Under the pieces are notes generated by a model. It saw nothing but the letters and a program-made list of their open reading frames with translations. It was not told the origin of the DNA and did not search any database. 64,000 bases of DNA from the IMG/VR virus record IMGVR_UViG_3300045988_119411, one strand, 5' to 3'. Source of the DNA: a virus. Shown here piece after piece: positions 2,913 to 62,486 of the stretch. Made by a program: the position numbers and the translations under genes. Every line of letters starts with the position of its first letter. Position 1 is the first letter of the stretch.

Positions 2913-3784
2913 TGCAGACGACAGAAATTCGGATGATCACAGACCTCGACAGTGCCGTTCCGCAGAGCCTTGACTTCAACTTTGAGGAAGTAAAAGACTG
3001 GCTTGCCGAAAATCTGACGGCCTACCGGTCCATGGTGGTCACGGAGGATGCGCTGGGCGCCGCCAAGGCCGATAAGGCGAAGATCCGAAAGATCAGCTCG
3101 GCAATTTCAGAACAGCGGATCGCGGTCAAGAAGCGCTATCTGGAACCATACAACTCCTTTGAGGCGAAAATGAAGGAGCTTTCCGCGATGTGCGACGAGG
3201 CTGCGAAGAACATCGATACGCAAGTCAAAGCATTTGAGGAAAAGCGGAAGACAGAAAAATGTGATCTCCTCAAGCAATACTTCTCTTCTGTCAATCATCA
3301 GAGTTGGCTCACGTTTGAGAGAATTTTCAATCCTCGTTGGCTGAATGCGACGTTTTCCTTTGATGAGGCAAAGAAGGAGATCGACAGCAGAGTCAAGGTT
3401 GTTGAAGTAGACTTGGAAACCATCCAAAAGATGGAGAGCGATTTTCAGGATGAGCTGATGCTGGAATACCAGCGGAGCCTTGAAATGAGGACTGTGTTCG
3501 AGAAACAGATCATGCTTGGGCAGATGAAAAAGCAGCGTGACGCCCAAAGGGTTGCGCAGGAAGCGGCAGCGAAGGCAGCTGCTGAGAGAGTGGCTACTGC
3601 GCAGAAGCCCGAAGAGCCGGTTGCCAAAACTGAGCCGGTGGCAAGGCAGAGTGAGGAAACGGCGGAGCCGCTGGAAGTTCTGGATTTTCGCTGCTATCTG
3701 ACCAGAAGCCAGAAAATCGAGCTGCGGGACTGGCTGATCAAGCACGGTATTAAATTTGGCCGTGTGCCGAAAGAGGATTACTGA
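2912..3784 (+). CDS. DUF1351-like phage protein (recombination-module partner)
   Basis: N-terminal FNFEEVKDWL...AKADKAKIRK pattern. Lies between the exonuclease and RecT. Confidence 0.6.
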   Translation: MQTTEIRMITDLDSAVPQSLDFNFEEVKDWLAENLTAYRSMVVTEDALGAAKADKAKIRKISSAISEQRIAVKKRYLEPYNSFEAKMKELSAMCDEAAKNIDTQVKAFEEKRKTEKCDLLKQYFSSVNHQSWLTFERIFNPRWLNATFSFDEAKKEIDSRVKVVEVDLETIQKMESDFQDELMLEYQRSLEMRTVFEKQIMLGQMKKQRDAQRVAQEAAAKAAAERVATAQKPEEPVAKTEPVARQSEETAEPLEVLDFRCYLTRSQKIELRDWLIKHGIKFGRVPKEDY

Positions 3785-3799
3785 GGAGGAAATTGAGAT

Positions 3800-4825
3800 A
3801 TGAATACAACAAATAGATTGGCCCCGAGACAGCAGACCTTTTCTGGCGCAATCACATCCACGACGATGCAGACGATGATCCAAAAATCGCTGAAGGATGA
3901 CCGGGCCGCTGCACGCTTTACATCAACGCTGATTTCGGCCGTCAATGCATCGGATCAGTTGAAAGCCTGCGAGCCAGGGACGATTGTGGCGGCAGCACTG
4001 CGAGGTGAGGGCATGGGCCTGAGCCTTGGAATGGGGTACTATCTCGTTCCGTATGGGCAGACCTGCACGTTCATCGTTGGATATAAGGGGTTGATCGCTC
4101 TGGCGCTGGCGACGGGGCAGTACAGCGACATTGACTGCATTGACATCCGGGAAGGTGAATATAAGGGCCGTGACCGGAGAACCGGAAAGCCATCGTTTGA
4201 CTTTGAGGTCTATGCGGACGATGAAGAGCGGGAAAAAGCGAAGATCATTGGGTATTATGCATATTTTGAGCTGAAAAACGGCATGTTCCGTTCGGAATAC
4301 TGGAATATGGACAAGCTACTCAAGCATGCAGACAAATATGCACAGGCGTTTAAGCTCGATAAATTCAATGCCTTTGTCAACGAAGAACTCAGCGAGGCAG
4401 AAACGGCAAAGCTGAAAAAGTCCTCGCCTTGGTACGATGTTGGAGGCGGACAGGAGCGGATGTGCAAGAAGACGGTTCTTCGCAGCCTCTTGAATTCTGG
4501 TTATGCTCCGCTGTCAAACGAGGTCCGCTATGTCCTTTCGGAAGATGATGAAGATGGCATGATTCCGGATCTTCCGGTTCTCAGCGTGGATCGGAGCACC
4601 GGCGAGGTCATTGATCCTGCGCCGGCAGCGATTGAGAGCGCCAAAGACGATGATTTCTTCGGCGGCGGAAATACGGTCGAGGAAGAGCTGAAGCAGCGGG
4701 AAGAGGCCGCACAGACTACTGAGGCCACGACAGAACCCAAGAGCCAGAAGAAAAGTCAGAAAAATGCTGCACAGGCAGAAGATGACTTCTCGGATGATGG
4801 GTTCTTCGGCATGGGTGAGGCATGA
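3800..4825 (+). CDS. recT: RecT-family single-strand annealing protein
   Basis: RecT core (LVPYGQTCTFIVGYKGLIALA) and an acidic C-terminal tail. Confidence 0.85.
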   Translation: MNTTNRLAPRQQTFSGAITSTTMQTMIQKSLKDDRAAARFTSTLISAVNASDQLKACEPGTIVAAALRGEGMGLSLGMGYYLVPYGQTCTFIVGYKGLIALALATGQYSDIDCIDIREGEYKGRDRRTGKPSFDFEVYADDEEREKAKIIGYYAYFELKNGMFRSEYWNMDKLLKHADKYAQAFKLDKFNAFVNEELSEAETAKLKKSSPWYDVGGGQERMCKKTVLRSLLNSGYAPLSNEVRYVLSEDDEDGMIPDLPVLSVDRSTGEVIDPAPAAIESAKDDDFFGGGNTVEEELKQREEAAQTTEATTEPKSQKKSQKNAAQAEDDFSDDGFFGMGEA

Positions 4826-5412
4826 GGCCGCTTGTAAATCGCGTAGAGCAAGACCCAAAAGACCCAAAACGCAAATTCTGCCAAAGCATGGTTATCTGGG
4901 GGAAGGTTACGCGCGACGCAAAGCTGGAATACACGAAGGGGTCGGAAACAGCCCCTCCAAAGCCAAAGGTCACGTTCGGTGTCGCGTATGGCGACAAGGG
5001 CGCAGAAAACGATAAGAAATTCATGAACTGCATCTCCATCGGAGAGTGCTACCAGACGGATTTGGCGCAGCGAGTTCGTGCTGGGGACTATGTTTTGATT
5101 GCCGGAAGATGGTCCAGCAAGGAGTATACAAACAAGGACGGAGAGCAGAGGACTTGGAATGAGCTGCGGATCGAACACATCGAAATCCTCAGTGATGGAT
5201 TCCGGGAGGCTGTAGTGGATGCCATGACGACCGCAATGTCGAAGATATTGACGTTGGGGCGCTATGATGAGAAGCGTGATTTCGTGAAAGCCTTCAATTT
5301 GTCCTTTGTTGATGCCTTCTGGAATCTCTGTCAGGAAATGCAGGGCGAGGCCGCGGAAGAATCGGTTGACGGTGATGGATACGGTGCCGATGACTATGAA
5401 ATGACGATTTGA
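4822..5412 (+). CDS. SSB-like OB-fold protein (putative)
   Basis: ATGA overlap with recT. OB-like layout (VIWGKVTRDAKLEYT...GDYVLIAGRWSSKEYTNKDGEQR) and an acidic C-terminus. Confidence 0.5.
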   Translation: MRPLVNRVEQDPKDPKRKFCQSMVIWGKVTRDAKLEYTKGSETAPPKPKVTFGVAYGDKGAENDKKFMNCISIGECYQTDLAQRVRAGDYVLIAGRWSSKEYTNKDGEQRTWNELRIEHIEILSDGFREAVVDAMTTAMSKILTLGRYDEKRDFVKAFNLSFVDAFWNLCQEMQGEAAEESVDGDGYGADDYEMTI

Positions 5413-14505: not shown

Positions 14506-14658
14506 ATGACAGAGTTTGTAAAAGCGGATGATCTGAGGGTCATCAATAAGGCGCTCAGTGAGGAAAAGGACGTGCGAATCCAGCGGACGCGGGACGGATA
14601 CCGCATCGTGGAGGACACGGTTCGGGTGCTGAAAAAGAGCGCGATTCTTGAAAAATGA
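14506..14658 (+). CDS. Small ORF (50 aa)
   Basis: MTEFVKADDLRVINKALSEEKDVRIQRTRDGYRIVEDTVRVLKKSAILEK. Below the track cutoff. Confidence 0.4.
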   Translation: MTEFVKADDLRVINKALSEEKDVRIQRTRDGYRIVEDTVRVLKKSAILEK

Positions 14659-14732
14659 CTCCTACCAAGCCGAAGGCTTGCGCTGGATGCGCGGGGTATT
14701 GAAGTAGGCGCGGCGGGAGAATATAGAAAATC

Positions 14733-47617: not shown

Positions 47618-47855
47618 TTTTGCCCTCCTCTGACAGGGCCGATAGCTGTGCCCGCAGATGCGCATTTGATTCTTCGAGCAATTTCACCGTTTTTTGCAGC
47701 TCAGAGATTTTAGCTCGCTGCTCACGATCACAGGCGCGAAAGCGCGCGAGCTCTTCACTCACACCACACAAAAACTGATGACAGTCTTTCTCAAACGGGA
47801 ATAAGCAGTGTTCGCATGTGCTAAGTCGATCGATTACTTTCTCCATGTCCATCAT
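47601..47855 (-). CDS. Hypothetical coiled-coil protein
   Basis: ATGA overlap with the PP-loop gene stop. RBS GGGAGGA. Confidence 0.5.
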   Translation of the reverse strand: MMDMEKVIDRLSTCEHCLFPFEKDCHQFLCGVSEELARFRACDREQRAKISELQKTVKLLEESNAHLRAQLSALSEEGKNGLDA

Positions 47856-48745
47856 AATAAATCCTCCCGAAATTCTTTCAGTACTTCTTGGCCCGGAAGT
47901 ACGCCGTCTTCCAAAATCCAGTGATATACATCTACGCCTGTTGTGCCCCAACGCATCTCGCCTTGCATTTTTCCAAGGCGCTTGCGCTCTAACAGCATCC
48001 GGTCGTAGGCCCGGATATATGCCAGTCTGTACTTCGGGTAGAGCGCAAATTCCATCAGGCGTTTTTTCTTCGACGCCAGAACGCAGCCAATGCAACCAAT
48101 ACGACAGAAACCGCAGTCATAAAGCGGATTCATACAAATATGCTCGGCTGCAACATAATCCCACACGTCTGTATCATCCCAGCCGATGATTGGATTTACG
48201 ATGCGCTTTCCTTTCATCTGGCATGTTTCAAATTGCATGCGTGATTCATCGTTATCATTCAAAAGTGTCAGCTTTTTACTGACATCGTGTGTTTGCACTT
48301 CGATGAGCCCACGAACGTTTTGCCGCTTGGGTGATTCGGCCCATCGCACACCAGTCGCAATAAACCTACCTTTTCCGCCACCTTCTTTGAGAATGGAGCA
48401 GCAATATCGCACCTGCCTCGTGGGCGGCATCAGCTTCTTGGGAATCAGATTCCACATGGTGATGCGCTTTCCGTTTGGCTGGACGTGGCAGTCGATCTTC
48501 GTCGGGATTCCTTTTTCATCCAACTTCCGGAAGGTCTTTCGCACATGATAGACCGTTTCCGGCGCATCTGCCGTTGTCAGGGAGTGGAGGACTTCGAACG
48601 GAATACCGCTGTTGATCGCCAGCCGGAGCAGCACGTCGCTGTCTTTTCCGCCCGAGTAGGTAATAACAAGCGGCTGCTTGTAGAGCTTCAAGCTCTGTGC
48701 CGACGCGAACCGCAGCGCCTCAAACGCGCTCTGTTCCAAGTCCAC
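47852..48745 (-). CDS. PP-loop ATP pyrophosphatase of the PAPS-reductase / DndC-like family
   Basis: VITYSGGKDSDVLL PP-loop, RYCCSILK, and a C-terminal Cys cluster CGFCRIGCIGC. GTG 48745 after TAGGAGGA. Confidence 0.8.
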   Translation of the reverse strand: MDLEQSAFEALRFASAQSLKLYKQPLVITYSGGKDSDVLLRLAINSGIPFEVLHSLTTADAPETVYHVRKTFRKLDEKGIPTKIDCHVQPNGKRITMWNLIPKKLMPPTRQVRYCCSILKEGGGKGRFIATGVRWAESPKRQNVRGLIEVQTHDVSKKLTLLNDNDESRMQFETCQMKGKRIVNPIIGWDDTDVWDYVAAEHICMNPLYDCGFCRIGCIGCVLASKKKRLMEFALYPKYRLAYIRAYDRMLLERKRLGKMQGEMRWGTTGVDVYHWILEDGVLPGQEVLKEFREDLL

Positions 48746-48756
48746 TACAGATCCTC

Positions 48757-49602
48757 CTACCAATATTCATTGAATTTCTTCCCCGTGATAATCGGCCTGC
48801 ACCATTCACGTTGAAACCTTCGCCACGCGGCGTCCGTTTTTCCTTCTTCATCCCGGAAAAGCATTGCGTATGGTACAAATCCGGCCTGCATGGTCTGTGT
48901 CAGCCGCAACTCCGCGTCCTCAAAACTGTCCCCAGCATATCCAACAAGGACATAGCAGCACATGGCGTGACTCTTTGGCCGGAACCCCGCAAGGCGTAGT
49001 TTCCGCCCCATCTCAATCAGAGGTTCCAGATCATCCTTTGTGTCGTATGCTGTGTAAAGCCGCTTCGGTTTTACCTCCCGCAGCAAATCCGCCTGCCATT
49101 GCTGAAGCAAGGACGGTTCCAGTCCTCCGGTGAAGATTGCAAAATGCTCCTGCCTCTTGAGCATTTCGCAGACCGCCCGGAAATGGTGTTCAGACGTTCC
49201 GAGAATGTTGTCGTCGAGGATGTTCCATCCGTTCACGATCGGCAGCTCCCGAATCACGCCATGTGCGCAGCGCGGAACCGAGCAGAACCAACATTCCTTC
49301 GTACAGCCGCGCGACGTGAAGATATAGCCGTCTCGGAGATACATTCCCGGCGTGAAATCACCCATGCGGTCATCAAATGCCGGGCCTCCAACTTCAACCG
49401 GAACACCTAGGATTTGCCACGCATAGTAGAGATCTTCTGCACGCGGAATGTCCCATGTGAAGGTTGTAGAGATGTGCACCGCTTCAACTTCAGCCTTGAT
49501 ACAATCTGCGATATTCTCGATTGTCGGTGCACCGAAGAACGCTAGCGTATCCGTAGGCGATGCAGCCGTCTTTCTTGGGAATACCCGCGCAATCCGATTC
49601 AT
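48757..49602 (-). CDS. Radical SAM protein
   Basis: FTSRGCTKECWFCSVP carries the CxxxCxxC cluster motif. 281 aa. Confidence 0.7.
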   Translation of the reverse strand: MNRIARVFPRKTAASPTDTLAFFGAPTIENIADCIKAEVEAVHISTTFTWDIPRAEDLYYAWQILGVPVEVGGPAFDDRMGDFTPGMYLRDGYIFTSRGCTKECWFCSVPRCAHGVIRELPIVNGWNILDDNILGTSEHHFRAVCEMLKRQEHFAIFTGGLEPSLLQQWQADLLREVKPKRLYTAYDTKDDLEPLIEMGRKLRLAGFRPKSHAMCCYVLVGYAGDSFEDAELRLTQTMQAGFVPYAMLFRDEEGKTDAAWRRFQREWCRPIITGKKFNEYW

Positions 49603-49850
49603 TTCAGCAACCCCATTCTTTTCAATCTCGCTACACTCCGTGACCGCTTTTCCGCGTCCGCAGTGTAGGCGTCGCGGCTCCGTTCAACTTCTCTCGCGGC
49701 TTTTCTCCCTCTGCAATTTTCCGCCAATGCCTTGAAAATCGGATATGCCTGCTGCGGCACTACCGCGTTTCCGAGGCATTTAAGTCTGTCCACCCGATTG
49801 GGAATCCCATGAGCCACTCGCACCACGTCGGGTTCACCATAGCGCCACCT
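49599..49850 (-). pseudogene. 3' remnant of a DNA cytosine-5 methyltransferase gene
   Basis: WRYGEPDVVRVAHGIPNRVDRLKCLGNAVVPQQAYPIF matches the Dcm C-terminal motif. No start and no N-terminal motifs. The frame runs into the DPPY MTase gene. Confidence 0.55.
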
Positions 49851-50508
49851 GTGCCGTATACGCTGCGAAGCGTTCTTCCTGTGCCTCGAAATAATGACTG
49901 TCAATCTCGCATCCCACAAAATCCAAACCGGCGTCATACGCCGCGATCCGGCTGCTTCCGCTGCCAAGATGGGTGTCGAGGATTTTGTCTCCCGGTTTTG
50001 CGTAGCGGCTGAAGATCCATTCGTAAAGCGCGACTGGCTTTTGCGTGGGATGGATACGCTTTTCGTTCTTGCGTTTGTCTCCCTGCATGACCGCACCTTC
50101 TACGATACTTTTTCCCTGACACATCCCATTCCACATAAAGCGAAATAGACGAACGCTGTCATGGCAGTTTGTGGCGGCAATCTCACAATCGCTGAATGAA
50201 CTGGAAGCATTGCATTTGTCCCACACAATCCGCCCGGCGGGGAAGTGATAGTAGAAGTAGTTGCAGCCCCATACGATGTACTTCTTCGCCACTCTGTCCA
50301 GCTCTTTGAAATATGGGGCCTGCGGCACATCCCACTTTGGGGAGATTGGATAATCACGATGAACGCCGATGGAGCTTACTTTGTTCCCGTAGTAGCCGCG
50401 CCGTTCGGGGCCGGAAAAATACGGAGGATCGACCACAGCCAGATCAAATGCCTTGTCTGGCAGACTGCGCATATATTCAAAGCAATCCACGTTGTAGACG
50501 ACGTTCAT
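49834..50508 (-). CDS. DNA methyltransferase, beta-class (N6-adenine or N4-cytosine)
   Basis: LAVVDPPYF (motif IV) precedes ILDTHLGSGSS (motif I). ATGA overlap with the ASCH gene. Confidence 0.85.
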   Translation of the reverse strand: MNVVYNVDCFEYMRSLPDKAFDLAVVDPPYFSGPERRGYYGNKVSSIGVHRDYPISPKWDVPQAPYFKELDRVAKKYIVWGCNYFYYHFPAGRIVWDKCNASSSFSDCEIAATNCHDSVRLFRFMWNGMCQGKSIVEGAVMQGDKRKNEKRIHPTQKPVALYEWIFSRYAKPGDKILDTHLGSGSSRIAAYDAGLDFVGCEIDSHYFEAQEERFAAYTAQVALW

Positions 50509-51128
50509 TCTCGCAATTCCTCCACATATCCCCAGCTCTGGGGGGGATGGCGAATTGTATTTCCACATTCCGCGATGTTAATGCTGCCGTCTGGATTGTA
50601 ATCATATCTCTGGAACGAACACGCAATCCTGCGTGACGGGCACGTCCCATCATCATTTTTATACCTGCAAGCAGCCGTGAACTCTCCCAGCTCCTTCGGC
50701 TCATCGTAGATCTTCAGGCTGGAAATGTGCCAGCCATAACCAACGGCAACGCCTAGATACTTGTGAAGCTCTGCGGGTTCCAAGCAAGTCGGCCGCGCAA
50801 CGTCCGACTGGATTCTTCTTGCACCATCAATTTCGACGATCTCTTCGCACACAAATTCACCGATGACCTTCTGACGCTTGCCCCACATATCGCAAACTGA
50901 GCCTTCGTCCGTTTTGATGAAAACCGGCTTGCCGTGATAAATCTCGCCGTAATTCTCGTCGCCATCTTTCAGGATACAGATGAGCCGTTCTTCTGCCTTT
51001 GTGCAGTAGATGTAGCACTTGAAAGGCGTTTCCATCTTCGGCCGCGTCTTGCGAACCTCGATGGTCTTTTCTCCGGACACGATCTTCCCGCACCATTGCG
51101 GGCGGATGCTGATTAAAACTGCTTTCAT
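50505..51128 (-). CDS. ASCH (PUA-like) domain protein
   Basis: MKAVLISIRPQWCGKIVSGEKTIEVRK, an ASCH N-terminal signature. Confidence 0.7.
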   Translation of the reverse strand: MKAVLISIRPQWCGKIVSGEKTIEVRKTRPKMETPFKCYIYCTKAEERLICILKDGDENYGEIYHGKPVFIKTDEGSVCDMWGKRQKVIGEFVCEEIVEIDGARRIQSDVARPTCLEPAELHKYLGVAVGYGWHISSLKIYDEPKELGEFTAACRYKNDDGTCPSRRIACSFQRYDYNPDGSINIAECGNTIRHPPQSWGYVEELRE

Positions 51129-51137
51129 AGAGGTCCC

Positions 51138-51431
51138 TCACAGATTGGAAAGTGTGCCGTTGCCGATGATAACGGCATTGGTCAGGCTGGAACCGAGGAC
51201 AAAGACTGTGACCTGAGAGCCGACGGAGGCGGAGGCCATGCTGGAAACGTAGGGGAGGGCGATTTCTTCATCGAAGGGGCGCTTGACGGTGATTTTCCCG
51301 CCAGAGGCTGCTTTCGTGACCTGTGCGCGGAAGAACCAGACGTTGGAGCTGATGAGATCTTTGATTTTTGGCTGGAAGTAAGTCCAGAGCGCATCGGCAA
51401 AGGCTTTCATTTCAACATCGTTGTTGGTCAT
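51138..51431 (-). CDS. Hypothetical protein
   Basis: 97-aa ORF coupled to the upstream ORF. Confidence 0.5.
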   Translation of the reverse strand: MTNNDVEMKAFADALWTYFQPKIKDLISSNVWFFRAQVTKAASGGKITVKRPFDEEIALPYVSSMASASVGSQVTVFVLGSSLTNAVIIGNGTLSNL

Positions 51432-52159
51432 GTTGAGTCTCCCTTCAGGTTGGAGTCAATCAATTCGCAGGAGATCATGTCATTTGGAAGGAGCAGACGG
51501 GCCGCGTCAAAGCTTTCTGCTTCGACCGTTACTTCTTCCGGTTTGCGTCCGATTCTCTGGATCGCAAACCGATAGGATGCGCGGATGACGTTTGTGTGGT
51601 AATTTCGGTTTTGATTCATCGCAAATGTTCCTTTTCCGCTGTGAATAGTTACCATGTCCGCAAATTTTGGGAGATTTACGAGCGGCCCATCGTATATGAT
51701 TTCGTTGGTCTTTTTGTTGACGATACGAATGCAAGCCGGGGCGGTCATAAAGAAGCGCTTCCCCTGATGCTGCTCCGGAGCGGCATGCTCTTCGTCGTTT
51801 TCGCTCGCCTCTGCTTGAAGGTGTTCATATTCCTCCGTCAGGCGCTGCGATTCGGCATGAAGCTCTGCATGGTTGGTGACGATGGAAAAGTATCGCTCTT
51901 CCGGCGGTTCGTAGAAATACTCGCCCGGCTTATCGTCGTAGAGAGGGGTGCTGGCGACGATGGAACGCGGCCAGTAGCCAAGCTCGAAGTCGTTATAGGA
52001 AACGGCGGGAGGATCGCAAGCACCGAAAACGTCACGAACCAGAGGTCGCGGGTAGGCGGAAAGAAATTCCTCGAACTCGGATTTGCTGACTCTTTTCGTT
52101 TCGGCCTCGAGCGCGGCGTGTTTGTCAATATAGTCCGAAAGGGCTTTCGTCATTTCCAT
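51428..52159 (-). CDS. Hypothetical protein
   Basis: 243 aa, no recognised motif. Confidence 0.5.
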   Translation of the reverse strand: MEMTKALSDYIDKHAALEAETKRVSKSEFEEFLSAYPRPLVRDVFGACDPPAVSYNDFELGYWPRSIVASTPLYDDKPGEYFYEPPEERYFSIVTNHAELHAESQRLTEEYEHLQAEASENDEEHAAPEQHQGKRFFMTAPACIRIVNKKTNEIIYDGPLVNLPKFADMVTIHSGKGTFAMNQNRNYHTNVIRASYRFAIQRIGRKPEEVTVEAESFDAARLLLPNDMISCELIDSNLKGDST

Positions 52160-52162
52160 GGG

Positions 52163-52504
52163 TCATTCCTCCCAGATGTTTAAGATGGTGAAGGTGATGA
52201 GGATGCCGGCGTCGGTTTTGCAGAGGGTAAGGTCGTCACAGAGCAGGGCAGATTCGGCCAGACGGCTTTTGAGCTTGGTGCTCATGACGTGCGTGGCCGG
52301 CGGAAATTCCAGTTGGCAATAGGCGGTCTGGCTTTCCTTTCGCGGCGGGACGATGTTGATGCCGATGTTTGCAGACTTCGCAAACTCAACCAGATTTTCG
52401 CGCAGGAGTTCAAACTTTCGGACGGGCCACGGATTGGGCTTCATTCCGTGGGTGGTTTCGCTTTCTCGAAGAATATCGCAAAGCGGATCGTTGATATGAT
52501 TCAT
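52163..52504 (-). CDS. Hypothetical protein
   Basis: ATG 52504 after AAAGGAG, about 45 nt downstream of motif copy E. Confidence 0.5.
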   Translation of the reverse strand: MNHINDPLCDILRESETTHGMKPNPWPVRKFELLRENLVEFAKSANIGINIVPPRKESQTAYCQLEFPPATHVMSTKLKSRLAESALLCDDLTLCKTDAGILITFTILNIWEE

Positions 52505-52547
52505 GGAAATGCTCCTTTTCATTTTCAATTTGAAAGCTCGGACGCTG

Positions 52548-52600
52548 TTATTGCTACTCGGATTTCGGATTTGTCCCGTGGAGAAGACGAAATTTTTTTG
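52548..52600 (-). promoter_or_regulatory. Leftward-arm motif copy E
   Basis: Minus strand: AAAAAAATTTCG...GGGACAAATCC-GAAAT-CCGAGTAGCAATA, upstream of ATG 52504. Confidence 0.5.
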
Positions 52601-52802
52601 CACAGCCTTCGCAGGCCGGGGAGAACAGCACCTGATTTCCCAAGCCACCGCGTAGCTCAAAGGTAAACATGAAAAAATGCAGCGTGCCATCTGATTCCAG
52701 CTGTATTTGTGGCAGGATCGGCCTGCCGCAGCATTTGCAGGTTGCTGCATAAAAATTTACATCGGTCATGATGCCATCAAGGATGGACTGTGTGAGTTCC
52801 AT
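52554..52802 (-). CDS. Small Cys-rich protein coupled to the cysteine desulfurase
   Basis: CKCCG...CEGC. TAATG stop/start overlap with 52802-53884. Confidence 0.45.
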   Translation of the reverse strand: MELTQSILDGIMTDVNFYAATCKCCGRPILPQIQLESDGTLHFFMFTFELRGGLGNQVLFSPACEGCAKKFRLLHGTNPKSE

Positions 52803-53884
52803 TACTGATTTCTCAGCTCCTTTACGTTTTTCGCCACAAGTTTGACGGCCTCGTCGATCTTGGCGCGGTCGGATGCTTCGCTCCTGCCATAGGCCGGTGA
52901 AGTTTCATTTGGTTCAGAAAGTGTGAAGTCGAAGGAGAAGCGGATGGCGCTGGCGGCACGGTCTGCGGAATAGCCGGAATTGATCAGAACGCGGGAGGGC
53001 TGCGGATTGCCGCTGGAGCAGGCCGCGCCGGAGGAGACCATGACGCCATCGGCCGCGAGACGCAGGACGAGCGCGTGATTTTCAACGCCGGGGAAGGAGA
53101 GATTGGCGATGTAGGGGGACTGCGTGCCGTTGCTTCCGCGGGAGAGCTTGCCATTGAGCTGCGCGTCTGGAAGTTCGTTTAGGATGCCGGTGATGAGACG
53201 GTCGTGCAGGTCTTCGGCCAGTTCTGAAAATTCCCGTAGGTGCTGCGTCCGGAAATGGAGCGCCTGCGCGAAGGCGGCGGCAAGGGGGACGGATGGTGTG
53301 GCGAAATGGTAGCTGGAAGTGATGCGGCTCGGTTCTTTGGCGATGAGAACGCCGACGCCGACCGGGGCGCCAAATTTATGGCCGCCGCCGCAGATGTAAT
53401 CAAGGCCGGATTTTTTGAAATTCAGCTCAGATTTGCCCATGGCGGCCGTACAGTCGGAAAAGGAACGGTCTGCGCAGGAAAGTGCTTGTTTCAGGTTGTA
53501 GACCCGACCGGTTTCGTTGTTGGTGTGGATGTGACAGCAGAATTTGCTTTCTGAGAAAGGAAAACCGTATGCGCCCACGTCCTGATATACCGTAACAACG
53601 GACTGGTGCTCCACATCTGAAATGTGGATATAACCGTCGTGAATCGCTTCGTGCATGGTTAGGTTGATGCTTTCTGTGGCGGATGTGGTGAAGATCACCT
53701 GCTCCGGCTCGCAATGGAGGCAATCAGCAACAATCTCCCGCTGTGAGAAAAGCATTTTTTCAGCGGATTGGCCGAAGGAATGGCTGCTGTTTGGATTGCC
53801 CCAGAAAAAGCGGCTGGTTCGCTGGAATGCGAAGAGTGCCGTTTTCAGAGTGGGAGAGGTCGCTGCGTAGTCCAAGTAGATCAT
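52802..53884 (-). CDS. Cysteine desulfurase (class V aminotransferase, NifS/IscS-like)
   Basis: IYLDYAATSP, GNPNSSHSFG, IFTTSATESINL, HTNNETG, GGGHKFGAPVGVGVL (PLP-Lys context), SSGAACSSG (catalytic Cys loop), AIRFSF. Confidence 0.85.
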   Translation of the reverse strand: MIYLDYAATSPTLKTALFAFQRTSRFFWGNPNSSHSFGQSAEKMLFSQREIVADCLHCEPEQVIFTTSATESINLTMHEAIHDGYIHISDVEHQSVVTVYQDVGAYGFPFSESKFCCHIHTNNETGRVYNLKQALSCADRSFSDCTAAMGKSELNFKKSGLDYICGGGHKFGAPVGVGVLIAKEPSRITSSYHFATPSVPLAAAFAQALHFRTQHLREFSELAEDLHDRLITGILNELPDAQLNGKLSRGSNGTQSPYIANLSFPGVENHALVLRLAADGVMVSSGAACSSGNPQPSRVLINSGYSADRAASAIRFSFDFTLSEPNETSPAYGRSEASDRAKIDEAVKLVAKNVKELRNQ

Positions 53885-54441
53885 ACGGCGGCTCCTTTCG
53901 GCCAGTTCTGGATGTAGGAGGCGCAGATTTTTTCATAGATCTTCTGCTGCGCTTCCAACTGAATGATTCGTTCGCGCAGGACGGCGGGTTCTTCCAGAAT
54001 GCCGGATTCAGGTGGAACTTCCTCCTGCTGAACGAGTTCGTTGGTTTCCGATAGAGGAGGAAGTCCTTCTTCTTTTTTCGGCGTTTCTTCCGCGGCGATC
54101 GGCCGTGTAATACCGAGGCTGATCAGGATGGCCGCATCGACGAGCGCCATTTCTTCCATGTCGAGCGTACAGAGATAGCTTTCGATCCGTTCTTTGGAGA
54201 CGGTATAGACAGATTCGCAGAGGACCGTGTTTTGTCGGCCATAGATGGAGATTGGGACATGGGTTGGAAGCGGCTTTTTGAAGGCTGTGGTTAAGTAAAC
54301 GATCTCGACCAAAGGTGAATACTGATTGTTTTTTTCATTGGAAACGATGACGGCGGGACGAGTCTTTGCCATTTCGGAGCCGACATAGTAGCCGGAATCC
54401 CGAATGTAGAACACGTCGCCGCGGTGAATTTTCAGTTCCAT
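53881..54441 (-). CDS. PemK/MazF-fold protein with a C-terminal extension of about 70 aa
   Basis: RGDVFYI...GSEMAKTRPAVIVSN...YLTT. ATGA overlap with the desulfurase gene. No antitoxin-like ORF adjacent. Confidence 0.6.
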   Translation of the reverse strand: MELKIHRGDVFYIRDSGYYVGSEMAKTRPAVIVSNEKNNQYSPLVEIVYLTTAFKKPLPTHVPISIYGRQNTVLCESVYTVSKERIESYLCTLDMEEMALVDAAILISLGITRPIAAEETPKKEEGLPPLSETNELVQQEEVPPESGILEEPAVLRERIIQLEAQQKIYEKICASYIQNWPKGAAV

Positions 54442-54460
54442 AGGGGCATCCTTTCGTCAG

Positions 54461-54498
54461 ATTTTTATAAAAATGGCGCGGCGGGAGATCGCCGCGCC
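54461..54498 (-). terminator. Rho-independent terminator after the HU gene
   Basis: GGCGCGGCG-ATCTCC-CGCCGCGCC followed by ATTTTTATAAAAAT on the minus strand. Confidence 0.75.
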
Positions 54499-54513
54499 AA
54501 GCGGTTCGTTTTG

Positions 54514-54789
54514 TTATTTCGCGACGATGTCTTTCAGCTTTTTGCCGGGTGTGAATTTGATACCGTAATGAGCTGCGATCTGAATGGGTTCTCCGGTTTT
54601 CAGATTCTTTGCCGTTCTTGAAGCTTTCCATTTTGGCTCGAATTTGCCAAAGCCGATGAGCACAACGTTTTCCTTTTCGGCCAGCGCCTCGGTGATGGAA
54701 TCAAGGACGGCGTTGACCGCATCTTCTCCGAAGGATTTGGTGACGTCCAGTTTGGCGGCAACGGCTGCGCTGAGTGCTTCTTTTGTCAT
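54514..54789 (-). CDS. hup: HU-family DNA-binding protein
   Basis: 91 aa. VNAVLDSITEALAEKENVVLIGFGKFE...RTAKNLKTGEPIQIAA. Confidence 0.9.
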   Translation of the reverse strand: MTKEALSAAVAAKLDVTKSFGEDAVNAVLDSITEALAEKENVVLIGFGKFEPKWKASRTAKNLKTGEPIQIAAHYGIKFTPGKKLKDIVAK

Positions 54790-54818
54790 GGGTGGCTCCT
54801 CCTTTCTTCAAAAATGTC

Positions 54819-54894
54819 TGGTGGGCCGCCCCGGAGTCGAACCGGGATCATACCAGTTATGAGCTGGTCGCTCTGGCCTTTGAGATAGCGGCCC
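54819..54894 (-). tRNA. tRNA with a CAT anticodon (Met, or Ile2 if lysidinylated), CCA encoded
   Basis: Manual cloverleaf: perfect 7-bp acceptor GGGCCGC/GCGGCCC, anticodon arm ACCAG-CTCATAA-CTGGT, T arm CCCGG-TTCGACT-CCGGG, A73-CCA. One D-stem mismatch. Confidence 0.85.
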
Positions 54895-55449
54895 ATTGAG
54901 TATCCGGCTTGATGTACCGGACGTGAGGGTTTACCGGATGCCCAACATCAGATCTCATTTTCGGCAGTACCTGACAGCGCCGCTTTCTGCCCGGTAGCTG
55001 GCCCGGCAGAGCCGATTTTGTCAGTTCGGCTTCTCAAGTGTCCTCATCTGGGTGAACCGCGCGCGGGTTTTTCCCGGCAAGCTGAACGGGCTGCACTGCG
55101 GAAGTGCGTGCCGTTCTACGAAGACCTTAGACACACGATCTTTACGAGTTGGTTTCGGCCTCCCACGCATCAAGCGCAGAGGATATGATGGCTGTTCCTC
55201 AAACTCCATTTAACTCAGTCAAGCACCAACCTCGGCCAATACTCATCTGCTGCACCATCATCTTTTCGGAGCGCGCAACCGGCTTTTACTGCGCTGGCGG
55301 CACAAGGGAGTTCCTTGCCCCGGTGGGGTTTCACCACAATATTCTGTTGGCTCCGTGGTACGAAGTGCCTTATCTGCGTCATTATAACGGCATTTTCTCC
55401 ACATCGGCCGTAGCGCGCGGTACTAACCATGCAGATTTGCAGACTTCGT

Positions 55450-55515
55450 TGGCGCGGCCTGAGTGAATCGAACACTCTGGGACAGACCGGGATTCCGCCC
55501 GTTGCCAAGGGCCGC
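55450..55515 (-). ncRNA. tRNA-like module b (66 nt, CCA end, lacks one arm)
   Basis: Acceptor GCGGCCC/AGGCCGC, T arm GAGTG-TTCGATT-CACTC, G73-CCA. Only 31 nt lie between the acceptor and the T arm. Confidence 0.4.
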
Positions 55516-55685
55516 ATATTGTGCCGGTCTGTTCCCGGCTGTCACCGCTGTGAAATCCTCGCTTTTGGGAGAGCAGGTTCTTCCGCAATTACAACATCGA
55601 GGCTTGAGGGGCTTACTTCAGGACTTCGCATCGCCCATGCGACTGTTCCGCTATACGCTATTCACTCGCGGCGTCCACGCAGAAT

Positions 55686-55790
55686 TGGTGGAGAAGGTGA
55701 GGGCTTGAACCTCACACGCCTGTTTTTGCTCTGGTCAGGTTACAGGCTAACTGGCCGAGCGTTGAGACATTCCCGTTCTGTCACTTCTCC
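55686..55790 (-). ncRNA. tRNA-like module c (105 nt, CCA end, expanded core)
   Basis: Acceptor GGAGAAG/CTTCTCC, D-like GACA-GAACGGGAA-TGTC, T arm GTGAGG-TTCAAGC-CCTCAC, A-CCA. No canonical anticodon arm could be drawn. Confidence 0.4.
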
Positions 55791-55796
55791 ATATAG

Positions 55797-55918
55797 TTGG
55801 ATGTTTTGCACCTTGCGCCATCTGATTCGAACAGAATTGGCTTGTGGACTCGAACCACGCTGCACATCCAAGGACTGCCATCGCCCTATGCGTTGCGCGG
55901 AATAGGCGATCACCGCGC
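55797..55918 (-). ncRNA. 75-nt domain closed by an 8-bp helix holding two T-loop-like hairpins, followed by a predicted H-type pseudoknot
   Basis: TTGGATGT/ACATCCAA closes GTGG-TTCGAGT-CCAC and TCTG-TTCGAAT-CAGA. In 55880-55918, GCGCGG pairs with CCGCGC inside the loop of ATCGCCTAT/ATAGGGCGAT. Confidence 0.35.
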
Positions 55919-56204
55919 TATGAGCCTTTGCCGTTTTTCGCTCTTTGTCTGGTTTTCTGTCAACCAGCAAACACCTCATCTGAATGCGCACTCAATGAGG
56001 ATTTCAGGCGCTGCCAAATAACGTCAGGTCGGTCAGCCGTCTCGTAGCTATTTGGCAACTTGCATTACAACCGAACAAACTGGATCAGCCGCCGTGACCA
56101 AATCTTAAAGCTGACCTTACAAACAAGTGGATTTTCTTGCTTTTCCAGACGGCCGCCGTGGTGCGCTTGCAATGCCAGACAGAGGCGTGACGGACGTTGA
56201 GAAA

Positions 56205-56273
56205 TGGAAGCAACCGGATTCGAACCGATAACAAACGCCAATGGCGCTGCTCTACACCTTGAGCTATGCTTCC
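56205..56273 (-). ncRNA. tRNA-like module e: complete acceptor, D and T arms, but a 3-nt loop where the anticodon loop should be; no CCA
   Basis: GGAAGCA-TA-GCTC-AAGGTGTA-GAGC-A-GCGCC-ATT-GGCGT-TTGTT-ATCGG-TTCGAAT-CCGGT-TGCTTCC-A. Confidence 0.45.
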
Positions 56274-56294
56274 AGATAGTAGGCTTTAGGCTCA

Positions 56295-56330
56295 ACCTAC
56301 CGGAACCGTCGTTGATTTGTTTTTCCGACG
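56295..56330 (-). promoter_or_regulatory. Leftward-arm motif copy G (degenerate)
   Basis: Minus strand: ACAAATC-N10-CCGGTAGG, immediately upstream of tRNA-like module e. Confidence 0.35.
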
Positions 56331-56559
56331 CATGCTATCGGGTGGCAGGAATTCAAACAACGATCAACAAACCGTAACTGCTGGAGATGGGCTTTCTGGA
56401 TGAACCCATCAGAACCGCCCACGCTGTTGTGTTTGGCGTACCAGCGCAAGGAGGACTTTCATCGGTTCCGATTTTCTACACAGCGGCACGCTCGTGCGAA
56501 CTAGCCAAACTCAGATGGTATCTCAACACTCTGATGGTGATGAAATCAGATTTCACGAT

Positions 56560-56934
56560 TTACTCGATTTCTTTCATCCAGAAATCGCGGCGGCATTTAT
56601 CACAAGTACTTTTTTCGAGCGGCCCATCAATACATTTTTTCTGACCAACATATTTTGGACACATACAAAACCATCCGTTTTCAAGAGCTAAGTCAGGAAA
56701 CAACTTTTGCAATTCACTCTGCCGCGTCTTGATTGGGTGTTCTTTTGCCCATTTCTCAACTTCTGCAACGACATTGGATGGAGCATTTGCTTCTGAAAGA
56801 ATGGAGATTTCACATTTTGTCGCTTTTTCCATTCGCCTGTATTCTCCGATAAATTCAACAGCGTCCAAATTTTTCATCCTCTCTGGAATGTTTCTGTGTG
56901 GCAACTTCTCAGTATGGAGCGGCTTACGAGGCAT
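56560..56934 (-). CDS. Hypothetical protein with a C-terminal Cys motif
   Basis: 124 aa. WFCMCPKYVGQKKCIDGPLEKSTCDKCRRDFW. Weak RBS. Confidence 0.45.
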   Translation of the reverse strand: MPRKPLHTEKLPHRNIPERMKNLDAVEFIGEYRRMEKATKCEISILSEANAPSNVVAEVEKWAKEHPIKTRQSELQKLFPDLALENGWFCMCPKYVGQKKCIDGPLEKSTCDKCRRDFWMKEIE

Positions 56935-57185
56935 GATCTCGCAATACCAGTTTGGAGGACTGGGGTGTTACCAATTACACTAAAGCCGCGGATTTCGTGC
57001 CGGAGCGGGGAAGTCAGCCGCGGCGGCACGGCCCGTCTTTCCGGGCGGCCAGCATGATTTCAGGAGGGGGATTGGGTTGCAGACGACCGGTTCCCGCGCC
57101 GGCGGTCTGCGTAGAGGCTCCCCGGTTTTACGTTGGTGCGGGAGCGTTCTTCCCAACAACCAAAAGCCAAACATCTCAGTTTGGA

Positions 57186-57211
57186 GCACCGGAATCTCAG
57201 ATTTGTTCCGG
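57186..57211 (-). promoter_or_regulatory. Leftward-arm motif copy F (degenerate)
   Basis: Minus strand: CCGGAACAAATC-TGAGATT-CCGGTGC. Confidence 0.3.
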
Positions 57212-57399
57212 CGAGCGCCTTCGCTTACTTTGGTGGTCGCTTTTCTACATAGAAAGGAGCCGATATGCCTCGCCGCAAGGAGGTATCAGACTTGCGGCAA
57301 GATCGGTTGGTCGGAGCCGGAGTTGCACCGGCTTGTCCGGGAGAAAGGAAGCCCGGAGAGCAACTGCGCCCAACCGTATGGCCGGAGATTATCCGGCAA

Positions 57400-58488
57400 T
57401 TATGCGTGAAGTTGAGAAGTTGTGTTGTTCAGCGCGGGGGGAAAAAAGTGGTCGCCCTTTTGCTGAAGGCGGAGAATGTTTCGCTGGGCCTGACGATCCT
57501 TTTCCATCTGCACCTGCTTGGTTTTTTTGCGGGATTTGCGGCTCGTGAGCTTTCCGGAATAGAGCTGCGTGACAGTGACGGATTCGTGGCCGAGCTTGGA
57601 CTGCAACTCCTCAAAGGACATGCCGCTGTTCAGATCGAGCCGCGCGCCGACATGTCGAAGGTCGTGCGAGCGGATCATGTCAACGCCGGTGACGGATTTT
57701 ACATGACGGCGGACGACATCGGAGAGCCATTGGCGCGTTCCCGGATGCCAGGATTCGCCGCTGTTCTGACCGGAGAAGGTTTTTTCGGCATAGGTTCCGA
57801 AAAGCACTTCGTCGTCGCGGGCGTTTTTGGGGCGGATGCCGCTGCAAAGATAGAGCCGGACAGCTGTCTGCGCGACGAGCGGAAAGTCCACATTCCGGAA
57901 TTTGTCGCCTTTGCCGTGTTCCACGACGATCTCAGAATTTTCCCAGTCGAGGTCGTTCGGCGTGAGCGCCAGAAGTTCACTGTTCCGGATCTCGGTCGTG
58001 AGCAGGAGAATGACGATGGCGTAGTTCCGTTCCCAAAACTGCGGACGCCGGAGGCCCTGCGGCGGGTTGTTCCGCCAGAGGAGAATGACCTGATCGTCGG
58101 TGAGGAACTGTTCATAGGGACGCCGCTGCTCTTTTTTGATGTCAGGAATGAGTAGCTTGGAAACGGGATTTCTGTCATAGAAGCGAGATTCGCCAAGCTG
58201 TTCAGAGGAGGCGTAGTTGTAAAAAGCTGCGAGCTCCTGAAGGTATTTTTGGATGGTGGATGCCTTTTTCCCTTCGCGGCGAAGCTGATCGCGCCACGCC
58301 TGAATGTCGGTGAAGCTCTCCTCATGGTCCCAGTTGCTGCGCTCTTCGACCATGAAAGCCGAGAAGGCCATGAAGATGAAATCTTTTGAGCGGATGGTCT
58401 GTTCTGCGCGGCCGATGGCGCGGAGATTGTTTTCGTAGGCGGCCATAGCGGCCATGAATTTTTTCTCGGCCTTGATGGGTGCTGCCAT
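57400..58488 (-). CDS. int: Tyrosine recombinase / phage integrase
   Basis: 362 aa. C-terminal catalytic region HDLRHVGARL...LGHESVTVTQLYS. RBS AGGAGGG. Confidence 0.9.
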   Translation of the reverse strand: MAAPIKAEKKFMAAMAAYENNLRAIGRAEQTIRSKDFIFMAFSAFMVEERSNWDHEESFTDIQAWRDQLRREGKKASTIQKYLQELAAFYNYASSEQLGESRFYDRNPVSKLLIPDIKKEQRRPYEQFLTDDQVILLWRNNPPQGLRRPQFWERNYAIVILLLTTEIRNSELLALTPNDLDWENSEIVVEHGKGDKFRNVDFPLVAQTAVRLYLCSGIRPKNARDDEVLFGTYAEKTFSGQNSGESWHPGTRQWLSDVVRRHVKSVTGVDMIRSHDLRHVGARLDLNSGMSFEELQSKLGHESVTVTQLYSGKLTSRKSRKKTKQVQMEKDRQAQRNILRLQQKGDHFFPPALNNTTSQLHA

Positions 58489-59520: not shown

Positions 59521-59570
59521 TTAGTGCTACCGGAAATTTGGATTTGTCCCGGCGTCGTGGGAAATTTTAT
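59521..59570 (-). promoter_or_regulatory. Leftward-arm motif copy D
   Basis: Minus strand: ATAAAATTT...GGGACAAATCC-AAATTT-CCGGTAGCACTA. Confidence 0.5.
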
Positions 59571-60529: not shown

Positions 60530-60565
60530 GTTATGTACCTCCTGTAGGTGAGTTTGATTTCACTT

Positions 60566-60625
60566 GTATAGCTACCGGGGACGCGGGTTTTGTCCCGCTT
60601 CTCCAAGGATTCTTTCAAATTTTTC
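60566..60625 (-). promoter_or_regulatory. Leftward-arm motif copy C
   Basis: Minus strand: AAAAATTTG...GGGACAAAACC-CGCGTCC-CCGGTAGCTATA. Confidence 0.5.
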
Positions 60626-61829: not shown

Positions 61830-61869
61830 GATCGGTTCCTCCTGAAATTTTTGTGATGCCTCACACCTT

Positions 61870-61918
61870 TATTGCTACCGGCGGGATGGGATTTGTCCCG
61901 CCGGTGCGGAAATTTTTT
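61870..61918 (-). promoter_or_regulatory. Leftward-arm motif copy B
   Basis: Minus strand: AAAAAATTTCC...GGGACAAATCC-CATCCCG-CCGGTAGCAATA, with a 9-bp stem CCGGCGGGA/TCCCGCCGG. Confidence 0.5.
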
Positions 61919-62437: not shown

Positions 62438-62486
62438 GTAATGCTACCGGGATTTTGGATTTGTCCCGGCTTTTGAAAAATTTTTT
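62438..62486 (-). promoter_or_regulatory. Leftward-arm motif copy A
   Basis: Minus strand: AAAAAATTTTTC...GGGACAAATCC-AAAAT-CCCGGTAGCATTA, 30 nt upstream of ATG 62407. Confidence 0.5.

Follow-up and report, generated by a model that had tools for sequence, protein, structure and literature searches.

The segment 54819-56330 of the viral record IMGVR_UViG_3300045988_119411 raises a simple question: what is encoded in a long stretch without genes that lies, with its sense on the minus strand, between a tyrosine integrase gene (57400-58488) and hup, the gene of the protein HU? We studied this segment in the window (the whole stretch of DNA that was analysed, 64,000 nucleotides), which corresponds to an almost complete phage genome. 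The original prediction offered two descriptions, a large structured RNA or a tRNA-like array, and the observation behind it is largely right; it was partly confirmed, and its interpretation is partly supported. The array is the better description: the segment is not a single large RNA but a mosaic of at least ten separable modules, in which a tRNA or tRNA-like units alternate with folded spacers. One of the spacers, here called element E, is apparently an undescribed and well-conserved RNA family with two pseudoknots. We favour, with a probability of roughly 0.5, a co-transcribed RNA operon in which the tRNA-like units would serve as punctuation for RNase P and for 3'-end processing and would thereby release the spacers.

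The non-coding nature of the segment, already proposed, was confirmed. Its open reading frames (ORFs) overlap on both strands, and comparison of the eight longest ones with PHROG and Pfam returned nothing except a marginal PHROG match (E-value 0.0046) of a plus-strand ORF. Nor did independent gene callers place any gene in the roughly 1.7 kb before hup in seven related contigs. On the minus strand no terminator interrupts the block of segment, tRNA-Met and hup, the sole strong intrinsic terminator being the one that follows hup, and the order of array and then HU recurs in more than 30 related loci from two phage clades. The 29 nucleotides (nt) that had been placed between the segment and the ribosome-binding site (RBS) of hup actually separate the CCA of tRNA-Met from the hup ATG, and the RBS lies inside them. 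The complementary pairs that had been quoted as long-range are all present in the minus-strand sequence, but they form local hairpins with a span of 20-40 nt, and the supposedly perfect 10-bp pair TTGCCAAATA/TATTTGGCAg really consists of 9 bp plus a U.G pair. The hairpins of the T-loop type that had been announced were found, at about 56224, 55855, 55710 and 55470, besides the one in tRNA-Met.

In 5' to 3' order on the minus strand the locus contains copy G (a hairpin motif), unit A, spacer S2, unit B, leader S3, unit C, element E with its terminal hairpin h, unit D, unit D2, spacers S4 and S5, tRNA-Met, hup and the terminator (Table 1). Only the canonical tRNA-Met has the features of a decoding tRNA, with an anticodon stem of 5 bp and an anticodon loop of 7 nt in a cloverleaf that tRNA models recognise. 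The title of the original prediction passed over a second tRNA-like gene, unit A, which ARAGORN calls "Asn att" and the Rfam tRNA model scores with 52 bits with the anticodon loop deleted; with an "anticodon" loop of only 3 nt, it cannot decode. Units B, C, D and D2 are detected neither by ARAGORN nor by the Infernal tRNA model, and a relaxed ARAGORN run, with introns allowed and thresholds lowered, contributed only implausible calls with 1.4-kb "introns". A scan for 7-bp stems followed by N and CCA found six such units on the minus strand, against 2.0 +/- 1.4 in shuffled sequences and one on the plus strand. A U precedes units A, C, D and tRNA-Met at position -1, which is not the case for D2 or for the tRNA-Gly that ARAGORN and Rfam detect further upstream of the array.

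To explore the relation of the segment to known RNAs, we scanned the window with all 4227 families of Rfam 15 (cmscan, gathering scores) and the region 54400-57300 with relaxed filters and E-values up to 10. The array region matched only tRNA at gathering scores, and 12 related loci contained no Rfam family besides tRNA. The relaxed scan added, far below the gathering scores, Plastid-ycf2 (antisense of two tRNA or tRNA-like genes), ncS54 (at the hup terminator) and the S4 leader family. Neither ROOL nor GOLLD gave a covariance-model match in either scan, no Rfam match was obtained for HEARO, transfer-messenger RNA (tmRNA), RNase P RNA or group I and II introns, and the tmRNA mode of ARAGORN remained empty, also with relaxed thresholds. 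These classes, as well as the catalogued ribozymes, are therefore not supported. Folding energy contributed little: only unit A (z -3.3) and tRNA-Met (z -3.4) stand out, and the values for 55927-56203 (-1.96), 54895-55355 (-0.86) and element E (-0.08) are less marked. Because this measure is uninformative for E, we relied on covariation instead.

The decisive evidence for function is comparative, namely conservation and covariation among homologous loci, and it is strongest in element E. Among the deposited phages (INPHARED), blastn matched only E, over about 110 nt (55582-55691) in one uncultured faecal phage with the same synteny, the remaining matches being tRNA-Met. An 18-mer from this stretch identified 39 true loci in IMG/VR, a pattern of the 5' end of E identified seven more, divergent ones, and a gapped core pattern gave four true matches among 185,579 species genomes, all four in metagenome-assembled genomes (MAGs) of GTDB; E was thereby found in 40+46 stretches of IMG/VR and in these four MAGs. 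The E-bearing MAGs are from Clostridiales and Clostridia, apart from two bins under the names Prevotella and Staphylococcaceae, in which phage contigs were probably mis-binned. In total, more than 50 contigs of phages or MAGs carry E; they come from Clostridia-type genomes or from gut and rumen samples, and each has one copy, always in the orientation of the tRNAs. In every locus it starts at the nucleotide after the CCA of the upstream tRNA or tRNA-like unit, with zero spacing, and at least eight different units, including tRNA-Thr(CGU) and tRNA-Gln, were found in this upstream position.

Alignment A2 of element E comprises 19 sequence types, which were aligned by hand into the structure and which the tool kept column for column. 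It contains seven helices, two of them pseudoknots, in the order a, b, b', d, a', d' and then e, f, g, f', e', g', over about 165 nt. In this alignment 96.4% of the cells are paired, a share that fitting by hand inflates, and double changes occur in 20 of the 33 pairs; none of 500 shuffles reached the observed values, and controls with slid partners were 32-48% paired. Every helix that varies also covaries, both pseudoknots included, with double changes in all five pairs of pseudoknot g and in five of the six pairs of helix e. Helix a and a possible CCAAUU/AAUUG pairing never vary and hence give no covariation signal. By inspection, nucleotides +4 to +6 vary without covariation with the e/f junction or any other candidate partner. 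A covariance model built from the E alignment (R1) matches the window once, at 55523-55688, with 131 bits. Together these data indicate that the segment does hold an undescribed phage RNA without an Rfam family, as had been suspected. A specific description of E or of the array was not found in the searchable literature, and an anonymous listing in a catalogue of 10,006 candidate viral RNAs (csRNAs) is possible.

Some loci depart from the common structure of E. Hairpin b is replaced by a tetraloop in two of the related loci, which are numbered with the letter L (L023 and L055), and in two rumen or colon Clostridia MAG contigs (L054, 5021-5270; L056, 2279-2528) it carries an insertion of about 95 nt with a tRNA-like T arm, GGUUCGAUUCC. 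We also discarded three candidate features of this part of the array. A tmRNA-like or permuted tmRNA function with a mini-ORF AUG-UUG-UAA in E was rejected, as neither the AUG nor the stop codon is conserved. A complementarity of 19 nt between hairpin h and the interior of unit D, which also appears in the minimum-free-energy structure, is taken as chance because it is not maintained in L141, L143 and L144. Hairpin h as a sigma-70 promoter (TTGACA-N19-TATAT) would place the transcription start inside an acceptor stem, and the -35 box is absent in most copies.

Close comparison with six relatives (88-99% identity) showed which parts of the array are under constraint. Compensatory changes were detected in the acceptor and T stems of unit A, in the T stem of unit B and in the anticodon stem of tRNA-Met. 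Drift affects the interior of unit C and, in unit A, the pseudo-anticodon arm. In L144, for example, an A-U pair of the acceptor of unit A is replaced by G-C and CG/CG of its T stem by UA/UA, both compensatory, and the anticodon stem-loop decays. The T stem of unit B changes from GTGG/CCAC to GGGG/CCCC in L141, L143 and L144, and GGGC/GUCC to GGAC/GUCC was observed as well; the anticodon stem of tRNA-Met is AG/CU, GC/GC or UC/GA. The acceptor and T arms of unit C are invariant, with an interior that varies without compensation. Unit D shows the change from UUGG/CCAG to UUGG/CCAA and an expanded inner loop in L141 and L143. In spacer S5 the hairpin UCCGG-UACAUCAAG-CCGGA, about 8 nt before tRNA-Met, becomes CCCGG/CCGGG in L042, and CUGCCGGG..CCGGGCAG becomes CUGCCGG..CCGGCAG in L141 and L144, changes that compensate or strengthen the stems.

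The modules themselves are gained, lost or replaced at CCA junctions and at the 5' ends of units. The 5' 200 nt of S2 are nearly invariant in the six relatives, and its 3' part of about 80 nt is swapped for unrelated sequence in L141-L143 and L145; no homologue of S2 was found outside this phage clade. Homology to all relatives stops exactly at the CCA of unit D2 (55356), and S4 stands where all six have a different post-CCA element, F. L144 and L059 contain about 300 extra nt (two units and a further element, H) just before unit C, in S3. The more distant L042, with an HU that is 86% identical, is devoid of units A-C and E and keeps unit D (81% identity, with a different interior hairpin), S5 and tRNA-Met. 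For S5, an exact 18-mer search in IMG/VR returned one chance coding match and a relative already known. Leader hairpins related to that of S3 (CCCRCC..GCGYAAACAA..GGYGGG) precede tRNAs in other arrays. We conclude that the locus is a cassette array and that selection acts on those portions of the units that are recognised by processing enzymes.

Within the window, the 9-nt sequence CCAATTCTG occurs twice, at 55832-55840 (after unit B) and at 55680-55688 (the first 9 nt of the junction between CCA and E), and this duplication looks like the scar of a cassette inserted by short-homology recombination. Besides E, a second structured element that directly follows a CCA is conserved, namely element F (UGCCCGCC...GGAAUGAAACCUCC...; GGAAUGAAACCUCCRCAUCUGGCAGYGG), and its hairpin CUCCRC/GYGGAG shows a compensatory change from A-U to G-C. 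Element H represents a third post-CCA type (NAUCCAGYG...GGCGAAGUACA...GAAACGUGUACC...GCAGCGGUGACAG plus hairpin h). H and the E of the window share their 3' end, GCAGCGGUGACAG, which suggests recombination between cassettes. Most spacers, including all three elements E, F and H, end in a covarying 5-bp hairpin with a loop of the GAAAGA type, preceded by UGRCR and placed 5-10 nt ahead of the next unit. This hexaloop hairpin was seen in the window at 57029-57047 and 55523-55539 and in many other loci, and it precedes an ORF in L046, L054 and L055. A purely protective role does not explain the conservation of its loop. It may be a boxB-like protein-binding element or a tertiary-contact element.

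In other phages we found a tRNA-like family with the constant frame GCAGACG...CGUCUGC-ACCA, in which the 34 variants keep acceptor, T stem and ACCA and have completely different interiors; GCAGAUG/CAUCUGC is a compensated variant of its acceptor, and some members have "anticodon" loops of 3-5 nt. The commonest mimic of this type (L002, L006, L014, L020, L026, L035 and others) carries CCAGGAGGUAUG, a Shine-Dalgarno-like sequence with AUG, in the position of the anticodon arm, and other members have pyrimidine-rich loops (CUUCUGUCCUUUCC); such mimics may be decoys directed at the ribosome or at mRNA. Members of 63-70 nt that do not form a cloverleaf (L007, L014, L026, L030 and L037) have GGRCMUCU in place of the T loop, and the GGRC of this loop is complementary to a GUCC that immediately follows the acceptor strand. 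Such a pairing may be a pseudoknot that substitutes for the elbow of D loop and T loop.

How would such an array work? We propose a single transcription unit, a chain of RNA cassettes that probably begins at copy G and ends with the terminator downstream of hup. Each cassette would be formed by a tRNA or look-alike followed by a folded spacer, the look-alikes keeping an acceptor-type stem of 7 bp on a T-arm-like hairpin and a 3' NCCA, most of them having lost a usable anticodon arm. Each unit would be cut at its 5' end by RNase P of the host, and each CCA would be the site of cutting or trimming by the enzymes that process tRNA 3' ends, so that the spacers would be released as discrete small RNAs capped by a hairpin, tRNA-Met would be produced and the hup mRNA would be freed. 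The 3' hairpin of the spacers would be left after RNase P cleavage and would protect them. Element E would be one such product, an RNA of about 165 nt with two domains and two pseudoknots whose 5' end is set by the upstream CCA and that probably acts in trans by binding a protein or an RNA.

This punctuation model is favoured because the units retain acceptor, T arm and NCCA, because D2 is a hairpin with ACCA, because E, F, H and D2 all follow a CCA with zero spacing, because there is no internal terminator, and because the synteny of array and HU is conserved. A hairpin with ACCA, as in unit D2, is the minimal model substrate of RNase P. This substrate reportedly goes back to McClain, Guerrier-Takada and Altman in 1987. 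Several points weigh against the model. Co-transcription, cleavage and stability of the RNAs are read from sequence, and the alignment of E was fitted to the very structure that it is meant to support. Punctuation explains neither the many invariant unpaired nucleotides of E and the conserved GAAAGA loop nor the retention of one acceptor (GCAGACG) across a whole family, which could indicate a specific protein, for instance an aminoacyl-tRNA synthetase. S2, S4 and S5 are devoid of homologues outside a narrow clade, have unexceptional folding energies and may be filler. In addition, the scan of early-region proteins found no phage-encoded RNA-processing or RNA-binding partner near the array.

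The roles of units and spacers could also be reversed, the look-alikes being the effectors that titrate or block host proteins that bind tRNA (anticodon nucleases, tRNA-targeting toxins, modification enzymes or a synthetase) and the spacers mere connectors. Phage tRNAs are known to counter tRNA-cleaving defences such as PARIS, the retron-associated PtuAB and PrrC, and a body of acceptor, D and T arms that stays constant across the 34 variants while their "anticodon" regions are hypervariable hints at an arms race. Anticodon loops are truncated repeatedly (in unit A and in the CCCC-GAAAU-GGGG type), and by inspection the GGRCMUCU loop of the non-cloverleaf members, paired with the GUCC after the acceptor, could preserve the elbow. 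We regard this alternative as possible but unlikely, since it leaves F, H and above all E, which is more conserved and covaries more than the units, unexplained, since D2 has no tRNA body at all, and since the target anticodon of an anticodon nuclease is not recognisable in most variants. A related and more speculative idea, to which we give little credence, is that E, and perhaps F and H, would form a new class of functional RNA acting on the 3' end of the tRNA that it is joined to, either catalytically or by docking on the CCA end or the elbow, the anticodon-less bodies being programmable tRNA mimics against host functions directed at tRNA. Docking could involve a pairing between two invariant sequences, CCAAUU and the AAUUG of the e/f junction. 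More specifically, E might be a self-cleaving ribozyme of a new class that cuts at its own 5' end and so makes the CCA end of the upstream unit, in the role of the HDV-like theta ribozymes, which provide a precedent for ribozymes next to tRNAs in gut phages (PMC10879173). The zero spacing in all of the more than 50 loci, whatever the upstream tRNA, and the pseudoknotted core with its many invariant unpaired nucleotides would fit. This spacing is nevertheless a property of the array and not of E, because the unrelated F, H and D2 also abut a CCA directly. Moreover, E matches no HDV (hepatitis delta virus), hatchet, twister, pistol or hammerhead model at E-values up to 10, its helix order differs from the nested P1-P2-P3-P1-P4-P2 of HDV-like ribozymes, it is about three times the size of theta ribozymes, its nucleotides +4 to +6 vary freely, and the CCA is encoded in all units upstream of E as opposed to 4.5% of theta-associated tRNAs, all of which makes self-cleavage improbable.

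The position of E before coding sequences suggests yet another role, that of a cis-acting leader in which E and hairpin h would control hup or another downstream ORF as a riboswitch-like sensor, a processive antitermination element or a stability element. In L046/L051 and L054-L056, E and h lie directly upstream of an RBS and ORF instead of a tRNA-like unit, and the core, with its pseudoknot and the invariant nucleotides in its junctions, is reminiscent of an aptamer. We also take the GAAAGA loop on its 5-bp stem to resemble boxB-type protein-binding hairpins. In most loci, however, further RNA units follow E and separate it by 0.3-1.3 kb from hup, the downstream gene varies, and no terminator or alternative structure sequestering the RBS was found, so that we see only a slim chance for a leader. 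The possibility that everything but tRNA-Met is debris, that is, decaying tRNA genes and attachment-site or recombination remnants beside the integrase without a present function, had been raised with the original prediction as an attP-type region. Units B and C are indeed degenerate, the duplicated 9-mer looks like a recombination scar, S2, S4 and S5 have neither distant homologues nor remarkable folding energies, and the content of the blocks differs even between near-identical phages. Decay does not account for the compensatory changes that E shows across divergent phage clades and MAGs, nor for those in the degenerate units, an attP-type origin does not explain full-length closing stems with such changes, and the array followed by HU is kept in the loci mentioned above, the exact HU protein occurring, with the locus type, in 331 sample blocks; we consider debris very unlikely. 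Least probable by far, practically to the point of being dismissed, is that the segment is ROOL, GOLLD, HEARO, a tmRNA, RNase P RNA or a group I or II intron. The context named for ROOL and GOLLD in the original prediction (a Firmicutes phage with adjoining tRNA genes) is all that fits, against the Rfam and ARAGORN results in the window and the related loci.

Table 1. Coordinates of the array modules, of the helices of element E and of the related elements F and H (positions in the window unless a locus is named).
Feature	Position	Strand	Description	Basis or remark
Copy G	56295..56330	-	Promoter/operator-like hairpin motif, ~20 nt upstream of unit A	Like the repeated motif family
Unit A	56204..56274	-	tRNA-shaped; normal acceptor, D and T arms; 3-nt "anticodon" loop; no encoded CCA	ARAGORN, Rfam
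Spacer S2	55927..56203	-	Several stable hairpins, including TTGCCAAATA..TATTTGGCA and CCTCAT..ATGAGG	Fold
Unit B	55838..55926	-	Degenerate tRNA-like; T arm GUGG-UUCGAGU-CCAC; 4-bp closing stem GGCU/AGCC; ends ..GCCA, then AUUCUG	
Leader S3	55791..55837	-	Small hairpin GAUG-GCGCAAGGUGCAAAA-CAUC; CUAUAU just before unit C	Sequence
Unit C	55686..55790	-	105 nt; 7-bp acceptor GGAGAAG/CUUCUCC; D-like arm; T arm GUGAG-GUUCAAGCC-CUCAC; ACCA end; no anticodon arm	Stem+N+CCA scan, fold
Element E	55523..55685	-	Conserved RNA of ~165 nt, right after the CCA of unit C	Comparative, covariance model
E helix a	55676-73 with 55624-21	-		
E helix b	55671-68 with 55651-48	-		
E pseudoknot d	55636-33 with 55612-09	-	Loop GGGY with RCCC	
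E helix e	55603-598 with 55561-56	-		
E helix f	55584-79 with 55572-68	-		
E pseudoknot g	55576-73 with 55549-45	-	Loop of hairpin f with segment downstream of e	
E hairpin h	55539-35 with 55527-23	-	Terminal hairpin, loop GAACAGA	
Unit D	55449..55514	-	66-nt minihelix type; acceptor GCGGCC/GGCCGC; T arm GAGUG-UUCGAUU-CACUC; GCCA end	
Unit D2	55356..55448	-	Long imperfect hairpin; 7-bp ACGAAGU/ACUUCGU plus ACCA; no T loop; directly abuts CCA of unit D	
Spacer S4	55147..55355	-	Window-specific block	Fold not exceptional
Spacer S5	54895..55146	-	Leader of tRNA-Met	Hairpins conserved with L042, 79% identity
tRNA-Met (CAU)	54819..54894	-	Encoded CCA	ARAGORN, Rfam 53.7 bits
hup	54514..54789	-	HU, 91 aa	ORF list; PF00216 in relatives
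Terminator	54474..54499	-	Intrinsic, closes the unit; 10-bp stem, 9 G-C pairs, U tract	
Element F	L058 2972-3143; L140-L145 2472-2643; L007 ~1490-1345 (-); L001 ~4752-4900; L042 ~3469-3560			
Element H	L007 ~1025-890 (-); L144 insertion; L010, L019, L035			

The setting of the array is that of a phage whose structural genes occupy the plus strand to about 43 kb and whose early and lysogeny genes are on the minus strand, best read as a temperate gut phage that infects Clostridia. A Spo0A_C-domain protein in the phage and the E matches in MAGs indicate a Clostridia host. Of 50,697 deposited phages, just one, a faecal phage without annotation, has a closely related large terminase. In human-gut metagenomes the phage of the window is common, as judged from the sample blocks with the exact HU protein, which was recorded on contigs of 66-87 kb. 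Copy G is invariant in five of the six relatives, and the motif family to which it belongs (minus strand GSCGGGACAAATCC..CCGGTAGCAWTA) also occurs at 52549-52580, 57181-57212, 59522-59553, 60561-60598, 61864-61901 and 62439-62470, before early genes; the family looks like a phage-specific promoter/operator set. The 3' end of the tRNA-Gly(UCC) gene (56915-56989) is the exact point at which homology to L042, L058 and L140-L145 is lost, different small ORFs follow in different relatives, and a 16-nt partial copy of its anticodon arm is found at 57177-57192, 229 nt upstream. This tRNA gene may be an attachment site or a cassette junction beside the integrase.

Downstream, hup is followed by a MazF/PemK-like gene and then by a class-V aminotransferase gene of the cysteine-desulfurase type, and a cysteine-desulfurase-like gene adjoining hup is kept in both phage clades. 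The MazF/PemK-like endoribonuclease (53881-54441, minus strand, directly after hup) has an acidic C-terminal extension of about 80 aa and no separate antitoxin gene; it is present only in the clade of the window and absent from arrays of the L002/L003 type and from most E-bearing arrays. A type III antitoxin RNA (toxI-like) for this gene was rejected, as 54300-57500 contains no tandem repeats (TRF) and direct repeats only at chance level. Genes for PAPS-reductase-like, radical-SAM-like, ASCH and DNA-methylase proteins lie downstream in the window, and together with the cysteine-desulfurase-like gene (47852-53884 in all, minus strand) they may constitute a module for DNA (Dnd-like) or RNA thiolation or modification. 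Among the 20 early-region proteins scanned there was no RNA-handling enzyme (reverse transcriptase, ligase, Ro or CCA-adding enzyme). In the structural-gene half, a DUF3800-VIII RNA of Rfam matched at 14656-14722 (plus strand) with 43.5 bits, against a gathering score of 40.2.

Phage tRNA clusters are usually read as helpers of codon usage or as spare parts against tRNA-cleaving defences. Decoding tRNAs make up the smaller part of the units in this array, most of whose tRNA-shaped members cannot decode. If the punctuation model is true, the locus would be the counterpart in a bacterial virus of mitochondrial tRNA punctuation, and a natural version of the tRNA-scaffold arrays with which synthetic biology releases many small RNAs from one transcript. 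Element E, about 165 nt long, is a well-defined candidate new ribozyme, protein sponge or tRNA-interacting RNA, and the swapping of cassettes suggests that phages draw on a common stock of RNA genes, which escapes annotation centred on proteins.

Several known systems share single aspects of the array. Plant mitochondrial t-elements are tRNA-like structures with acceptor and T arms that RNase P and RNase Z use as cleavage signals, so that the ends of neighbouring transcripts are defined (e.g. PMC1920247). They are known from organelles and not from phages and are flanked by mRNAs, whereas the phage units are flanked mostly by structured non-coding RNAs and their cleavage is predicted. Ends made by tRNA-processing enzymes are also found in 3'ETS-leuZ of E. 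coli, in the C4 RNA of P1 and P7, which is matured by RNase P, and in the tufB operon with its four upstream tRNAs; unlike E, these are short RNAs that act by simple base pairing, without similarity to it in sequence or structure. ROOL and GOLLD share the context of Firmicutes phages or prophages, often near tRNA genes, but they are single RNAs of about 500-800 nt, in contrast to the separable modules of 60-280 nt described here, which match neither model.

Closer in position are the theta ribozymes, minimal HDV-like ribozymes that Kienbeck et al. (2024) described a few nt from the 3' end of tRNAs of human-gut phages and for which a role in tRNA 3' maturation was proposed (PMC10879173). E likewise lies directly 3' of a phage tRNA or look-alike, but it measures about 165 nt as opposed to about 50, has another topology and matches no HDV model, the nested double pseudoknot of P1, P1.1, P2, P3 and P4 in 45-70 nt being absent. 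The tRNAs upstream of E also differ in encoding the CCA without exception, and the hosts are Clostridia, not mostly Bacteroidota. A further likeness is that to the tRNA cluster of phage T4, in which RNAC and RNAD (species 1 and 2) derive from the same precursors as the tRNAs by processing that depends on RNase P. Both are stable RNAs, and their function is still unknown (PMC9697503). The packing of tRNA genes and non-tRNA structured RNAs on one strand without an internal terminator is found here and in more than 50 related loci, and both systems are phage tRNA clusters with small RNAs other than tRNA, which are stable in T4 and predicted to be so here. They differ in host and phage lineage and have no sequence relation, and our array is distinguished by mostly non-decoding look-alikes, larger pseudoknotted spacers, a mosaic organisation and hup at its end. 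A phage tRNA cluster from which other stable RNAs are also made is a known kind of locus. What is new here, judged by Rfam 15 and the literature that could be searched, is the predominance of non-decoding mimics, the mosaicism of the cassettes and element E.

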